Positions 6,290 to 57,330 are shown, counted from the stretch's first letter. The stretch: DNA of 64,000 nt from Octopus vulgaris (GCA_951406725.2 OX597818.1:22754001-22818000); one strand, 5' to 3'. Notes: generated by a model not told the origin, from the letters alone. Made by a program: numbers and translations.

Positions 6290-6545
6290 TAGCCGAAGTC
6301 GCGTCTCGCCTTCACCTTCGAAACGCGGAGTAGATGAAGCCATGGCGACTGAAGAAGGGGAATTATCCTTGTGTTATTTGTCCTGTACTCTATTTTTTCG
6401 TTGTTTAAGAAAAATGTCCAGTTCCTTGGTTTTGTGTTTATGTTTTCGTTTCTCATTGTGTTCGACGTTTTTTTGGTGTCCTGTATCCATATATGCATGT
6501 AGATGTAGGTACGTACATATATGTATGTATCTATGCATATGTTTT
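6290..6545 (+). mobile_element. PLE pseudo-LTR-like repeat, family 1
   Basis: Near-collinear with 9745-10005 and, inverted, with 55975-56156. Carries the HHR motif and sits among microsatellites. Confidence 0.6.
6300..6360 (+). ncRNA. Non-circularly permuted hammerhead ribozyme motif (family 1)
   Basis: cgcgT-C-tcgcc..ccttc-GAAA-cgcg..ggcga-CTGAAGA-agggg. Stems III and I are Watson-Crick; stem II pairs with G-U wobbles. Confidence 0.7.
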
Positions 6546-6639
6546 ATTTATTAATTTGTTATTACACGACAGAACGCACGCATCCATTTCTAAGTAAGTT
6601 TGTTCTATATATATATATATATATATATGTATGTATATA

Positions 6640-7022
6640 TAGGGAGAGAATTCACACAAAAAAAGCACAAAAGACAAAGACAGGTGGTGTAGACAACAAA
6701 CAGATGTATTAGTCTTTAACGAAGCAACCCATACCAACCAAGGGAAACATGTTGAAACATCTATGATGACAATGATGATGATGAGGAGGAGGAGGAGGAG
6801 GAGGAGGAGAAGGAGGAGTAAGAGAAGGAGGAGGTAGTGGAGGAGGAGTAGCAGCAGCACGAAGAGGAAAAGGTCTTTAACGAAGTGAAAAAGTCTTTAA
6901 CTTTTCGAGCCTACGCTCTTCCACAGAAAGGAACACAGACAGAAACAAGGAGAGAAGATAAAGAATGTTTAGTGGCTAGCGATCTATCATGGCGAATGAT
7001 ATATATATATATATCATGGCGA
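6640..7022 (-). mobile_element. PLE pseudo-LTR-like repeat, family 3
   Basis: Shares GACAGGTGG..AAACAG..TATTAGT and TTTCGAGC..CTCTTC..CAGAAAG with 22240-22450 and 9340-9505 (inverted). Its first part also recurs at 44235-44310. Confidence 0.55.
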
Positions 7023-7029
7023 AGGTCTA

Positions 7030-8241
7030 ATGAAGGTGAAAATTGGACTAAGAATGATACTAATAGTAATAAAAATAAAAATATACCTATTACTAATAGA
7101 TACAGGAATGGCCTTGCATTTAGTACATCAAGTCAAGCAACAAATTGTAATCCCATTATTAATACTAAGTCTAGGATTCGTCAAGTTACCTGGTTTGCCC
7201 CTCCTTTTTCATTAAGGGTGAAAGGTTTACCAAAGCTATTTTTTAAGTAATTGAAGGAAAATTTCCCAAAACACCACAAATACTATTCAATATGTAACAA
7301 GTCAACAATCAAGTTGGCCTACTCAGTCACTCCCAATGTCGGATCTATTATTGCTTCGTTGAACAGAAGTAAAATAAGGCGCTATAATGATAGAAATGAT
7401 AACAGAGGCTTTAATGGAAAATTCATTAATGACATAGAAGATAGTAGTAATATTAATAGTACGTCTTCTGAAATCGATTATGAAGGGCATCTTGGAATGA
7501 CAAATAATGCAAATAGTAGAAATAATCATAATAATGATGTTGGTGATGATATTAGTGATTATAATGATAATCAGGGTGGTAATAATAGTGTTAATTGTAG
7601 TGATAATCGTAATAAAAATATTAGTAAAAATAAAAATAAAAATAAGAATGATGGTAATAGTAAGAATAACAATAGAATAAATATACCGGAAAATAGTACG
7701 AACGATGGTGTAAATGATATGGTGGATCGTAGTACTGGGAGGGGGCATGGTTTCGGAGTGATCAGTAATGTGAGACCCCGTAGCAGGTTGAAGAAATGTA
7801 ATTGTAGGGACCCATCAGTATGTCCGATTAACGGAAATTGTCGTCAGGAAAATGTAGTTTATAAATGTAGTGTTGAGGTACAAGGAGGCCAGAGAAAAAT
7901 GTATATTGGAAGCACAGTAGACTTTAAGCAGAGGTACCGATCCCACCTGAGCCCTTTCAACAATCCTAAATATAGGACCTCTACAACTTTGGCATTACAT
8001 GTTAATGACCTTAAGGAGAGGAATGTTGAATTTAAAAATATCATGGGATATCCTTGCGCATGCCTCTTATAGAATTGGGTCCACTAGATGCGGTTTATGC
8101 ATAAGGGAAGCATATACTATATTGAAAAATTACAACGACGCAGTGTTAAATAAGTTTACTGATGCAATACCAGCGTGTACGCATAGGATCCGCTCGACGT
8201 TCCATAAGAAATTTAGAAATAGAAATAGCAATAAAAGTTAG
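7030..8241 (+). pseudogene. 5'-truncated Penelope-like element ORF (Naiad-like) with C-terminal GIY-YIG endonuclease
   Basis: TWFAPPFS linker, CNCRDPSVCPINGNC Zn knuckle, VVYKC..MYIGST..FKQRY.SH, CGLC..E, LN and CTH motifs. In-frame TAA at 7248 and a frameshift near 8035-8040. RT core absent. Confidence 0.88.
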
Positions 8242-53575: not shown

Positions 53576-56350
53576 CCTCCCGATTGGTAACCCCACCACT
53601 AATAATGGTTTCATTTATTTTCCACAGGAGTGGCAGATGAGGCCGAAGGACAATAAGAACCAACAACAGCAACAGGAACGTAAATAAATACCTAAATAAA
53701 TAACATGAAATCACCAGCCAGCCTGCCAGGCTCCTCTTGGCTAGTATATCCTTCATACATTCCTGCTAGTATCGTTACCCCACCACCGCCGCCGCCGCCG
53801 CCACCGTCACCACCACCACTACCACCACCATAACTTCCACCAACATCACCAAGTTAGCCTTCCTTACAACAATATAATTGCAATATATATCACGTGATTA
53901 TAACATTTTGAGGCGGCAAATTTACGGTTATGTTCATCCATGATAGTTTTATAACTATTTGTTACTCTGCATCTGGTAGACGGCAGTTTGATTGTAGTTA
54001 ACTCAACATTAGTTTATATTTTCTTATTGCATTATGTAGGCTGCCTATGTAATGTAATGACCTTACATCCACATGTGTAATTGATGTGTGCTTCTATGAT
54101 GCGGATGTGGCATAATACATATTCTTCTTCATACATAAATACAAGCGTATATCTTTGTATGTGTGTGTGTGTGTGTGAGTGTATGTGTGTGCGGTGCTCG
54201 TTTATACGTATATATATATATATATATATATATATATACAGACAGACAGATAGATAGATAGATATATAGATATATAGATATGTATACATGTGTGTGTGTA
54301 TATGTGAATAAAAATGTGTATACACGTTAGTATATATATATATATATATATATATATATATATATATATATATATATATATATATATATACAGAGAGAGA
54401 AAGAGGGAGAGAGAGAGTGGGAGGAAGGGAGAGTAAAGAGTGGCTATGAGAGGAATTCCAGATGAGCAGATGTGAAGCTGATAATGCAAATAAGCAAATA
54501 CAACCGCTTGGGCTAGATATACAGAATATACATGTAAATAAAGAGAAAACGAAAACTGAAATATTCAGACGATGAATATTCATATATAGATATATAAACA
54601 TTTATATATTAACAGAACGAGCTTACACAGAGTACATAGACACGAGAAATTAAACGGAGAAGGCATGATGTTACAGGTCCGACAACTGTTTCTGGGGGCT
54701 CGGAATTAGTTCATAACGCTGGCAGATGTAGTTCGCATAAAGTTAAGGATATGCATACAGCAGTGGAAGCATATAAACCACATGTTTATCTGTCACCTCC
54801 AGCACCGAGACCACTTTTCTTAATACGTTCCAAGTAATATGATCAGTTTAATATTTGTAAAGGATGAAAATCTGCCAAATACATTTATTTCCTGCTACTA
54901 TATGATCAGAAAACTGGTTAATTCTCGCAGAGCTTTGAAGTTTTACTTGCCAAACATAATTTATTCTGATGTCTAGTCTGTTCATAATGTCACTGCGCAA
55001 GTACTTTTATACTTTTATATGCATCTGCATGTATCCATATGTATACTTTTATATGTGCGCTGGACAATGTAGTGTCGCTGATATAACCAACAATAAATTA
55101 CAAAACAGCTGTCAATAAATGTAATAAACATCTATTCTCTCACTTCACTTATCTGGTTAATTAATATGTATGTATGTATGTATGTATGTATGTATGTATG
55201 TATGTATGTATGTATGTATGTATGTATGTATGTATATGTATTTATGTATATGTATGTATATGTATGTATATGTATGTATATATATATAAATATATGTATA
55301 TATATATATATACATATATATATATGTATGTGTATATATATATGTATATATATATACATGTATATATATATACATATCTATATATCTATACATATATATG
55401 TATATGTATATATGTATATTATATATATATATATATGTATATATATATATATATATATATATATATATATATATATATATATATATATATATATAGAGCA
55501 GCAGAAATATTGGGTAAATTGCCCTTACAAAGCGGAAAAATTTATCAACCAAAAGCCATGGGTCTCGAACCCATGTCTTTTAAAAACTCCGGCCAAGTGC
55601 TTTATCATTAAGCTAAACTGCCCGCTGACATATCAATCTGTTTTTTAGACGCTTTTTTAAAAGCTAAATGTGCAACCACGTGCATATAAATATAAACAAG
55701 CTAACGTTTTTCATTTATATATAGGCGCCGAAATGTGTATAGAGATACAATAATTTGTCAACAAACAGCCATGGGACTCGAGCCTATATCTCTTAAGACT
55801 CTGGCTGTTTGACATATTTTTTCGCTTTGTAAGGGTAATTCACCTAATGTGTCAGCTGTTTTAACGGCATCTCGGTATTCGAAAATAAATCATCTTATTT
55901 GTATCTCTATACACATTTCGGCGCTTATAAAAAAAAACAGAAGAAAAACAGTTGTAAATAAAATAAAACATATGCATATATATAAACATATATGTACTAC
56001 CTACCTCTACATGTACATATACACGCATATATGAGTACAGGACACCAAAAGGACGTCGAACACAAAGAGAAACGAAAACATAGACACAAACCAAAGGAAC
56101 TGGACATTTATTTAAAAACAGCAAAAAAAAAAAAAAAAAAATAGAGTACAGGACAATTCTTGTCCTGTTTTCCATTTCTTTCTCTCATTGTTTGCGTATT
56201 GAACACATTTGCTTTCGTAATACATGTTGTATACAGATGGTGACGTCCTGTACCCATATATGCATCTGTGTGTGTATGTATTATATATATATATATATGT
56301 ATGTATGTATGTATGTATGTATGTATGTATGTATGTATGTATAAGTATAA

Positions 56351-56650
56351 AAGCATTATCGATCGCACATACACAGTGTATACATTTTTGTTTATACGTC
56401 GAATTCGCCGTGGGAAAGCGTCTGGGGAAGCTCCCTATACACCACTGAATGCTAAAGAACACTTGAATATAACAGACCAGGCGAGACAACTACCCTTGGA
56501 ATGAATGCGAGAATTGTATATGCCAATATTTCGTCATTATTGTGGCTTATCAATACCAGGCAGTCGACAGAGTAGAGAGTTTTCCCAGACGCAGCAAATT
56601 CGGTGTATAAACAAAACATATATTTTATGTACGTGCGATCGATATTGTTT
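56351..56650. repeat. Imperfect long inverted repeat (foldback or MITE)
   Basis: tatcgatcgcac..ttttgtttatac..gaatt..gcgtctggg is mirrored at 56570-56650. Confidence 0.75.
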
Positions 56651-57140
56651 ACATTACAAGAGCTGCTTTAAATACTAATTTAATACGTATATATATTAAG
56701 TAAGACGAAACTAGAGACTTCTTAGGATGATCCTCATTCCAAGTTCTCAACACTCTTGTGGTTTAACGGTGGGATTTAATTTTACAATGAGACTAAATAT
56801 ACGTTTATTAAACATTCATATTCCAGCAGACACATTTAGTCATAACCCACGCTATATTAATAAAGTATGCGTATGTATGTATGTATGTATGTATGTATGT
56901 ATGTATGTATGTATGTATGTATGTATGTATGTATGTATGTATGTATGTATGTATGTATGTATGTGTGTATGTGTGTGTCTATGTGTGTATGTATGTATGT
57001 ATGTATGTATGTATGTATGTATGTATGTATGTATGTATGTAGGGATAAACTTCCTTGGAAATGGATGCGTGGCGTTCAATCAAATAATAATATAAATAAT
57101 ATATATATATATATATATATATATATATATATATATATAT

Positions 57141-57330
57141 ATGCATATATGGGTACAAAGCTCGAAATGGGGAGTAGATAGACAGTCGACAACTGATGAA
57201 GGGTCGTTCTTTATGTTTCTTGTCCTGTTTTCCATTTCTTTCTCTCATTGTTTGAGTATTGAACACATTTGTTTTCGTAATACATGTTGTATACTGATGG
57301 TGAAGCCCTGTACCCATATATGCATCTGTG
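57141..57330 (+). mobile_element. PLE pseudo-LTR-like repeat with inverted 17-bp end and partial permuted HHR
   Basis: atgcatatatgggtaca (57141) is inverted at 57309-57325. GAAA at 57164 precedes CTGATGA at 57193. Body matches 56157-56270. Confidence 0.6.

Follow-up and report, generated by a model that had tools for sequence, protein, structure and literature searches.

A predicted hammerhead ribozyme fold opened inside its CUGANGA block in Naiad retroelements and short non-coding repeats of Octopus vulgaris

Introduction

Hammerhead ribozymes of types I, II and III share the circular order CUGANGA > GAAA > UH. Non-circular forms were described by Eckert et al. (2023, PMC10085705), whose authors assume that the CUGANGA block is uninterruptible. 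In their type SGC (HRIMA-1 and variants), which has the core order cut site > GAAA > CUGANGA, A9 passes straight into position 10.1, a short link connects the tips of stems I and II, and a Watson-Crick helix joins the other sides of these stems, sometimes beside stem III. According to the available part of that report, type SGC is known only from metatranscriptomes and from no genome of a known organism. Type CSG comprises two metagenomic sequences, both of which cleave, with a piece made of T, stem I and CUGANGA at the 5' end, bonded to 10.1.

Among retroelements, the minimal type I hammerheads of PLE pseudo-LTRs and of non-LTR retrozymes are located near the 3' end of PLE-type elements and in tandem non-coding units (Cervera and de la Pena 2014, PMC4209133; Li et al. 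2026, 10.64898/2026.07.22.740005). They follow the circular order, have a short palindromic stem III and need a dimer; the PLE hammerheads have G10.1-C11.1 and tolerate an insert at 9/10.1 (PMC4209133). PLEs of the Naiad clade, characterized by an endonuclease before the RT, a CxC motif, (TA)n targets and tandem as well as inverted insertions, have no canonical hammerhead in the accessible part of their description, which flags only unexplained 'HHR_core' and 'HHR_half_core' strings (Craig et al. 2021, PMC8557442).

Here we analyse a 64,000-nt window of the O. vulgaris genome (GCA_951406725.2, OX597818.1:22754001-22818000), for which a preliminary description listed five permuted hammerhead motifs. 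These motifs are quite probably all copies of one conserved RNA fold with a hammerhead core, which likely cuts itself after UH and likely processes the RNA of Naiads and of short non-coding families.

Architecture of the motifs

Sequence inspection located all five motifs where they had been reported, with the core elements in the order UH > GAAA > CUGANGA; the circular order of types I, II and III is thus not present. The non-circular permutations to which the preliminary description referred are documented (Eckert et al. 2023), type SGC in that work having the same core order. Stems I and III also agree with the sequences quoted, apart from one G.U in stem III of the copy at 9751 and one A.A in stem I of the copy at 40695. 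Instead of two repeat families, the motifs represent four, A to D, in two related pairs (Table 1). The motif at 6300 had been considered full and indeed keeps stems I, III and the core, but it is 5'-truncated near 6284 and lacks its real stem II partner. The motif at 57158 had been called partial; other family C copies possess the cut-site block that it lacks, and the expected pairing is present there (90% Watson-Crick in stem I, 91% in stem III).

The principal deviation concerns stem II, which had been placed directly 3' of CUGANGA. In 30 copies of each of the four families this adjacent register is Watson-Crick paired to 0-23%, compared to 87-98% for a partner upstream of the predicted cut site, whose sequence differs from family to family. 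The strand before GAAA therefore forms stem II with this covarying upstream strand. A9 is followed by a helix closing the whole RNA, and a hairpin is inserted between the closing helix and position 10.1. The fold is non-circularly permuted and pseudoknotted as originally proposed, but three further elements had been overlooked: the closing helix, the inserted hairpin and an interaction helix (T) that joins stems I and II. From 5' to 3' the RNA would be composed of closing helix a, inserted hairpin, stem II (10.x), 1-3 nt, T a, stem III (16.x), H17 with the cut, stem I (1.x), 2-6 nt, stem II (11.x), GAA, stem III (15.x), a predicted kink-turn or bulge, T b, stem I (2.x), CUGANGA, 0-2 nt and closing helix b. 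Because two helices are inserted in the CUGANGA block, this core-opened fold is none of the six published orders; stem II lying upstream and the opening at A9/10.1 also distinguish it from plain type SGC.

Table 1. Predicted elements of the five motif copies (positions in the window; paired strands joined by "with")
Copy	Feature	Strand	Positions	Remarks
Family A	full architecture	+	9683..9811	predicted cut 9756/9757
Family A	closing helix	+	9683-9687 (5') with 9807-9811 (3')	
Family A	inserted hairpin	+	9688-9729	
Family A	stem II	+	9730-9734 (5', 10.1-10.5) with 9766-9770 (3')	
Family A	interaction (T) helix	+	9737-9743 (5') with 9786-9792 (3')	
Family A	stem III	+	9751-9755 with 9774-9778	
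Family A	stem I	+	9757-9761 with 9795-9799	
Family A	core	+	H17 9756; GAA 9771-9773; CUGAAGA 9800-9806	
Family B	full architecture	-	40687..40832	young family
Family B	closing helix	-	40818-40832 (5') with 40687-40701 (3')	15 bp
Family B	hairpin	-	40777-40815	
Family B	stem II	-	40772-40776 with 40739-40743	
Family B	T helix	-	40764-40770 with 40718-40724	
Family B	stem III	-	40756-40760 with 40731-40735	
Family B	stem I	-	40749-40754 with 40711-40716	one mismatch
Family B	core	-	H17 40755; GAA 40736-40738; CUGAAGA 40704-40710	
Family D	copy	-	11383..11541	worn; hairpin broken by G-run expansion; closing 3' strand mutated
Family D	closing helix	-	11525-11541 (5')	
Family D	stem II	-	11465-11469 with 11433-11437	
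Family D	T helix	-	11459-11463 with 11413-11417	
Family D	stem III	-	11450-11454 with 11425-11429	
Family D	stem I	-	11443-11448 with 11406-11411	
Family D	core	-	H17 11449; CUGAGGA 11399-11405	
Family A	truncated copy	+	6284..6557	5'-truncated ~22 nt before predicted cut; 3' tail to ~6557
Family A	stems I, III, core	+	6300-6360	no stem II partner, hairpin or closing 5' strand
Family C	truncated copy	+	57159..57382	truncated just inside ribozyme beside (TA)n; tail after ribozyme
Family C	stem II	+	57159-57163 (3')	
Family C	T helix	+	57180-57185 (3')	
Family C	closing helix	+	57200-57205 (3')	
Family C	stem III	+	57167-57171	
Family C	stem I	+	57188-57192	
Family C	core	+	GAA 57164-57166; CUGAUGA 57193-57199	

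Pairing and covariation

The hammerhead core (CUGANGA, GAAA and UH with A15.1-U16.1) is kept in most copies of the four families (alignments of 30 copies per family, of which 23 reach U16.1 in family C), and a G-C pair occupies 10.1-11.1 in 13 of 13 alignment rows. Stems I, II (with its upstream strand) and III abut this core and covary. In MAFFT alignments, which were not fitted to the structure, 86.6% of the cells are paired, and two-sided changes occur in 18 of 22 pairs. None of 500 shuffles is paired as highly, a count which is not a probability because the aligned copies are related. Upstream stem II is paired to 91.8-95.4% in the alignments, the hairpin base to 90% (two-sided change in 4 of 5 pairs) and the T helix to 79-90% (85-93% Watson-Crick in families A-D). 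The weakest helix is the closing one, with 67% (inner part) and 82% (outer part) pairing and two-sided change in 3 of 14 pairs; RNAalifold retains its outer part alone. Free cofolding places this helix beside a hairpin whose last nucleotide directly precedes stem II; this holds for A, B, C, D and a number of other subfamilies. The cofold z-scores of the closing helix are -4.5 to -8.3 in family B and near 0 in most Naiad copies. Shuffled sequences offered an upstream 5-bp partner together with a T run of at least 5 in 57, 38, 4 and 5 of 5000 cases for A, B, C and D, respectively, family B's own T run being only 4 under this strict rule. A shorter helix, pairing the tail with the linker that separates GAAA from CUGANGA (families B and D), was discarded because the longer closing helix uses the same strand. 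By a permissive test that had no null, the pattern of a kink-turn (a bulge of about 3 nt, then tandem G.A/A.G) can be accommodated between stem III and T in 25 of 28 stem-sequence classes; by eye it is not evident in most non-octopus Naiad ends.

A plain type-SGC ribozyme, in which the strand just 3' of CUGANGA forms stem II after an extra base following A9 and the upstream strand acts as a regulatory competitor or switch partner, is judged very improbable. The A-like families do provide four pairs at register +1 (90.4% paired in the alignment, mostly G.U, with some covariation and 0 of 500 shuffles as high), family B has a 4-bp match at +5 (80.8% in the B-like alignment), and PLE hammerheads often have an additional base at 9/10.1 according to the accessible part of PMC4209133. 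However, about half of the A-like pairs are G.U, the register varies between families, and neither family D nor the Naiad family nor the cnidarian, comb-jelly and acanthocephalan ends have it. Of the first 30 unselected pattern matches, 18 have stems I and III; upstream stem II is present in 13 of these (swap control 27/230), adjacent stem II at 0/+1 in none, and the same strand builds the closing helix. Forced upstream stem II is favoured over forced local stem II by 8.8-12.7 kcal/mol in 4 of 4 copies, and the local pair probability is 0.0000 in all four. A nested model gives the upstream pair 10.1-11.1 a probability of 0.80-0.83 in B and C, but of 0.00 in A and E.

Abundance and descriptor searches

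The pattern CGAAAN{22,27}CTGANGA matches the genome 35,480 times, compared to 4,228 matches of a backward control, in agreement with the suggested high copy number. All three stems are fully paired in 29 of 90 pattern matches, many copies being truncated or worn. A descriptor of stems I and III yields, in 464 kb (the window plus 40 fixed 10-kb stretches), three matches in the order UH > GAAA > CUGANGA, all in the window, and none in any other of the six orders; after local dinucleotide shuffling (10 replicates) the order UH > GAAA > CUGANGA was never matched. Within the window, a three-stem descriptor with adjacent stem II matches in none of the six orders. The strict descriptor found nothing in the 400-kb fixed sample, where BLAST detected four worn A-D copies, and the C > S > G order of type CSG is absent from the window, the sample and the loci scanned. 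As anticipated for standard hammerhead models, Rfam reports no ribozyme in the window, nor in five loci at E up to 1, where only repeat-driven microRNA and snoRNA noise appeared. Descriptor-based ribozyme counts overlook copies by the tens of thousands in this single genome, in which the core-opened form may be the most abundant hammerhead form.

That a single accidental arrangement was merely amplified with its repeat is hardly credible. Copies within a family are admittedly not independent, and many are truncated or worn, but 28 stem-sequence classes in the Octopus genome and Naiads of four phyla keep the same helices with different stem sequences, the shuffles and other orders give none, and the covariation counts already refute this reading for the structure.

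Naiad retroelements as carriers

The suggested association with PLEs is valid insofar as the motifs belong to high-copy PLE-type repeats, but the PLE remnant in the window itself is Neptune-type and carries an ordinary type I hammerhead, which rules it out as the motif carrier. A young Penelope-type ORF of 753 aa (L223) was also rejected: the family E copy behind it is an insertion of its own, which three sister copies lack. The PLE clade bearing the core-opened fold is Naiad. A motif derived from the published Octopus Naiad end matches the genome 523 times (control 0), and the fold, situated in the 3' UTR, is found downstream of the Naiad RT in 5 of 7 loci examined. In copy L241 a GIY-YIG endonuclease lies N-terminal to the RT (endonuclease 2135 < CxC 2960 < RT 3783-4508); the ribozyme was observed behind this RT not in L241 but in other copies with truncated 5' ends. 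RVT_1 matches in this family are below the Pfam cut-off.

Consensus sequences of 35 of the 54 published Naiad 3' ends were inspected by eye. Eight display the core-opened fold (comb jelly, cnidarians, acanthocephalan, cephalopods), six a clean type CSG (nematode and spider), and 20 no core-opened fold in the part viewed. These ends offer an answer to why Naiads were reported hammerhead-free, and the SGC and CSG forms, described in a single paper, become features of animal retroelements.

Relation to known hammerheads

The core-opened fold shares with type SGC the short link between the tips of stems I and II and the Watson-Crick helix on their other sides. In contrast to type SGC, however, 10.1-10.5 are upstream and two helices are inserted behind A9; an unbroken block with the stem II strand 1-2 nt after A9 is missing, except for a weak G.U-rich version in A-like families. 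With type CSG the strand run and spacings are identical from 10.1 to the end of stem III (II, ~1 nt, T, III, H, I, short link, II, GAA, III), whereas the piece T - stem I - CUGANGA is at the 3' end, held by the closing helix and the hairpin. The fold might accordingly be regarded as a type-CSG ribozyme whose T b - stem I - CUGANGA piece was relocated. As in PLE type I hammerheads, the 10.1-11.1 pair is G-C and the 9/10.1 site accommodates an insert, but stem III has full 5 bp and the knotted RNA can be drawn as a monomer. The hammerhead of Zhan et al. (2024, PMC11300833) likewise has a Watson-Crick pseudoknot as peripheral contact of a hammerhead core; its G10.1 directly follows A9, and its 'helix IV' is not the closing helix found here. 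The part of Forgia 2023 (PMC10162972) available to us contains no precedent for helices at 9/10.1, and the wiring has no match in the literature searched.

Mechanistically, closing helix and hairpin would stack and hold A9 beside G10.1, while the T helix would stand in for the stem I-II tertiary contact. We propose, with moderate confidence, an active hammerhead of a seventh wiring, opened inside CUGANGA and shut by the two inserted helices as a five-helix junction, which would be old among Naiads (comb jellies to cephalopods), interconvert with CSG by the shift of one piece, and cut in vivo, setting the 5' ends of thousands of insertions. Observed are the helices with their covariation, the copy numbers and the location downstream of the Naiad RT. 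The fold breaks the published assumption of three indivisible blocks in six orders, and hundreds of natural variants are available for testing how far the core tolerates an opened A9/10.1 junction.

Predicted cleavage and 5' ends

Among 90 family B copies, chosen via a tail 20-mer 81 nt downstream of the predicted cut, 19 have their 5' end at 0..+15, 13 at 0..+10 and two exactly at the cut, while none ends at -1..-8. The rate ratio is 8.1 relative to -104..-5 (p ~1e-7); a mixed set gives 28 of 80 copies and a ratio of 6.7, and family A a weak step (5.9, p 0.03, three identical copies counted once). This pile-up with its sharp edge suggests cleavage of family B RNA in vivo. Four assembled contigs from presumed RNA runs reveal no position at which numerous molecules start or stop, a result that speaks neither for nor against cleavage.

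Alternatively, the structure might not cut, or only very slowly, and be a conserved hammerhead-derived signal in Naiad RNAs, for RT binding or for the 3' end; the pile-up would then reflect RT stalling in the knot. We consider this alternative unlikely. It would accommodate the 13 of 90 family B ends inside the fold at +16..+35, the missing step in the Naiad family (ratio 0.5, 30 copies), the poor in vitro cleavage of metazoan PLE hammerheads noted in the available part of PMC4209133, and the fact that no tested precedent for an opened A9/10.1 junction was found in the literature searched. However, across phyla the stems change but the core bases, the G10.1-C11.1 pair and UH with H other than G persist, and the 13 ends at 0..+10 are beyond the last helix strand that RT must unwind, with an edge at the predicted cut (13 versus 2 in the next 11 nt, p ~0.01). 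The footprint opens a direct test of a long-standing question, namely whether the hammerheads of PLEs cleave in vivo and shape insertions.

Mobilisation of the short non-coding families

Unlike Naiads, families A-D are non-coding; they are (TA)n-flanked and partly tandem. They would ride on Naiad retroelements: cleavage of tandem or read-through transcripts would yield unit RNAs, which the Naiad RT/endonuclease would copy into (TA)n sites. The cut 3' piece as template would give short copies starting at the cut, and uncut, tandem or circular RNA long and tandem ones. No close Naiad RT match occurs near A-D in 180 loci (one 29% match is to a Penelope-type ORF), and outside the fold no sequence is shared between the Naiad family and the tandem units examined (A, B and one B-like). 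Short A-D family motifs are likewise not found in a ribozyme context in the part of the Craig et al. supplement searched. Like non-LTR retrozymes, the families form non-coding tandem units with one ribozyme each; the type I hammerhead of retrozymes is absent from A-D. The longest Met-started ORFs in three tandem units are 74-106 aa. In 75 of 90 cases (TA)n lies no more than 120 nt from the tail motif (background 330/3320). Among 100 family B matches there are 10 tandem pairs, spaced by 486-892 bp, and three inverted pairs, and tandem copies are also present in families A and D.

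Block order and abundance of the motifs

All five hammerhead-like motifs claimed for the window in the preliminary description were recovered in place, their stems I and III pair as described there, and the claimed order of cut site (S), GAAA (G) and CUGANGA (C) was borne out. A descriptor of stems I and III returned three matches in S>G>C order within the 464 kb scanned, none in the five other block orders and none for S>G>C in ten shuffles. The high copy number also claimed applies to each motif type, with 2724, 2851, 1328 and 2177 first-look candidates for repeat families A, B, C and D, respectively, in the 2.8-Gb genome. 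The pattern CGAAAN{22,27}CTGANGA has 35,480 matches genome-wide compared to 4,228 for a backward control; the ordinary hammerhead order, counted for spacers of 22–45 nt and thus without those with shorter ones, has 39,287 compared to 25,571 backward. Stems I, II and III were all fully paired in 29/90 pattern matches (~30%), a share from which fully paired copies would number roughly 10,000 in the genome.

Position of stem II

The part of the preliminary description which placed stem II directly after CUGANGA had to be abandoned. A three-stem descriptor with such a stem gave no match, and the strand right after A9, the base ending CUGANGA, is only 0–23% Watson-Crick complementary to the strand before GAAA (30 copies per family). 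The 5 nt preceding GAAA find their partner ca. 16–22 nt upstream of stem III, with 87–98% Watson-Crick pairing (30 copies per family) and a sequence that differs in each of the families A–D. Of the 30 unselected pattern matches listed first, 18 contained stems I and III, 13 of these with the upstream stem II and none with an adjacent one; exchanged upstream regions, used as a control, gave an upstream stem II in 27/230. A stem II formed locally with the strand just 3′ of A9 retains some alignment signal. In 30 copies per family, however, such pairing needs a +1 shift in A and C, with about half G·U pairs, and a +5 shift in B, and finds no good register in D; moreover, the forced upstream stem II is better than the forced local one by 8.8–12.7 kcal/mol in 4/4 copies.

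Besides the upstream stem II, a strand 1–3 bases past its upstream strand pairs with the linker between G and C (85–93% in families A–D). The resulting helix T corresponds to the stem I–II interaction helix of Eckert et al. 2023 (PMC10085705). MAFFT alignments of 13 natural copies show 86.6% pairing across the four helices and changes on both sides in 18/22 pairs; 0/500 shuffles scored as high, counts which are not probabilities because the copies are related. Upstream stem II by itself is 91.8–95.4% paired in alignments of related copies.

Closing helix and inserted hairpin

A helix closing the whole RNA is formed between the strand after CUGANGA and one lying further upstream, and a hairpin lies between the 5′ strand of this closing helix and stem II, its final base immediately preceding 10.1, the first base of the stem II 5′ strand. 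Free cofolding of 80 nt before stem II with 20 nt after A9 recovered both elements in families A–D and several other subfamilies; z-scores were strong in B and mixed in A, C and D; for most Naiad-family copies of the same genome they lay close to zero. The centroid fold of the B copy in the window contains closing helix, hairpin and upstream stem II at an overall z of -1.37. Covariation was found in 4/5 pairs of the hairpin base. The closing helix is 67–82% paired in a B-like alignment with few two-sided changes, and RNAalifold retains just its outer part. By a permissive test, a possible kink-turn pattern between stem III and T fits 25/28 stem-sequence classes.

Relation to known hammerheads and proposed mechanism

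According to PMC10085705, which names six orders of the three blocks, S>G>C is type SGC, validated and from metatranscriptomes only, type CSG is based solely on two metagenomic sequences, and CUGANGA is assumed to be contiguous with its flanking stem strands. The present wiring was not found in the literature searched, which covered few subscription papers and the Eckert supplement by terms only; nor did this literature, mostly without subscription papers, yield permuted hammerheads in Naiads or cephalopods. We consider the structure well supported and the RNA a hammerhead with an apparently novel wiring. From 10.1 through stem III, strand order and spacing are those of type CSG, so the simplest description of the fold is a CSG hammerhead with one piece shifted to the 3′ end.

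The core is expected to adopt the usual hammerhead fold, and G12 and the 2′-OH of G8, assigned as base and acid of the hammerhead in PMC11300833, might act likewise here. An extra base at 9/10.1 is common in PLE (Penelope-like element) hammerheads (PMC4209133), which marks this joint as tolerant; two helices would occupy it in the present RNA.

5′ ends of copies at the predicted cut

For family B, the first 90 of 2,332 matches to a tail 20-mer 81 nt downstream of the cut were taken, this being the sole selection criterion. Relative to the predicted cut after H17 (position 0), their 5′-end rate per nt is 0.002 at +36..+75, 0.009 at +16..+35 and 0.017 at -4..+15; further upstream it drops to 0.001–0.003 for the following 140 nt. 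The 5′ end coincides with the cut in two copies and lies at -1..-8 in none. In a mixed set 28/80 copies have their 5′ end at -5..+15 (ratio 6.7). This set comprised 90 of the first 100 matches listed (6 chance-looking and the final 4 omitted), less 10 without a family reference; divergent references or (TA)n make a few boundaries indistinct. The step is weaker in family A and absent at the predicted cut in the Naiad family. Stalling of the reverse transcriptase (RT) in the knot could account for the ends at +11..+41, but less readily for the 13 that fall at 0..+10 and stop sharply at 0. The copy ends appear to mark the predicted cut, an indirect sign of cleavage; ribozyme activity is likely.

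Families A–D and Naiad elements

Families A–D are non-coding units of ~700–850 bp, often tandem or inverted, which behave like retrozymes. (TA)n is found at the 3′ end of 75/90 family B copies compared to a 10% background. Four loci outside the window (L320, L101, L258 and L326) represent additional divergent families with all stems replaced and the wiring unchanged.

In Craig et al. 2021 (PMC8557442), Naiad PLEs are described as lacking canonical hammerheads, targeting (TA)n and carrying some unexplained hammerhead core strings. Inspecting by eye the last ~630 bases of 35/54 consensus sequences from this source, we found the same fold in eight ends (Obim, Ovul, Esco, Bfor, 3_Chem, 2_Movir, Amil and Plae), with just 2 bp in stem I of Bfor; all eight also possess a closing helix and hairpin, although the cephalopod ends form these imperfectly. 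Clean type CSG was seen in six (Parc, 2_Nbra, 3_Nbra, Hcon, Hpol and Smim; File S5), the T helix being evident in five, and Sdum resembles type SGC, carrying long inserts and U3-A8 in its core. The remaining 20/35, several marked incomplete, contained nothing clear within the part viewed. The six CSG ends belong to nematode and spider elements, sources beyond the two metagenomic sequences previously available for this type. Six bivalve and hemichordate ends without a hammerhead in that part (CGi, Olur, Tgra, Pmar, 1_Skow and 1_Pfla; File S5) have in common a conserved, apparently structured 3′ UTR motif, possibly another kind of ribozyme or a signal for the element end.

For the Ovul motif, 523 matches were counted in the present genome; it lies downstream of RT in L221, L196, L197, L198 and L231. 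In L241, endonuclease, CxC and RT follow one another as in Naiads. The units tested (A, B and one B-like) and the Naiad family have no sequence in common outside the fold. Because fold and target are shared, we infer that Naiad might mobilise the A–D units.

Other elements

Further elements of the window and of loci outside it (L-numbers)
Feature	Location	Strand	Remark
Broken Neptune-type PLE frames	window 6852-8072		weak GIY-YIG match, E 0.006
Type I minimal hammerhead, palindromic stem III	window 8651-8735	+	3′ UTR of broken Neptune-type PLE
Inverted repeat, 470 bp, 89% identity	window 10785-11253		directly adjoins family D copy
Frame, presumably like the C-terminal endonuclease end of a non-LTR retrotransposon	window 32602-32961	+	no Pfam match
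Marginal tRNA match	window 55550-55622	-	29.8 bits
Uninterrupted 753-aa frame, RT and C-terminal GIY-YIG	L222:2794-5052	-	young Penelope-type family
Canonical-order (type I) hammerheads in flanks	L036:1221, L075:899, L149:913	-	

The type I hammerhead of the window goes unmentioned in the preliminary description. The inverted repeat resembles an inverted PLE-type insertion, and the tRNA match probably stems from a pseudogene or from the tRNA-derived head of a repeat. The Penelope-type family of L222 has several near-identical copies. Given the type I hammerheads in the flanks of three loci, both wirings coexist in this genome.
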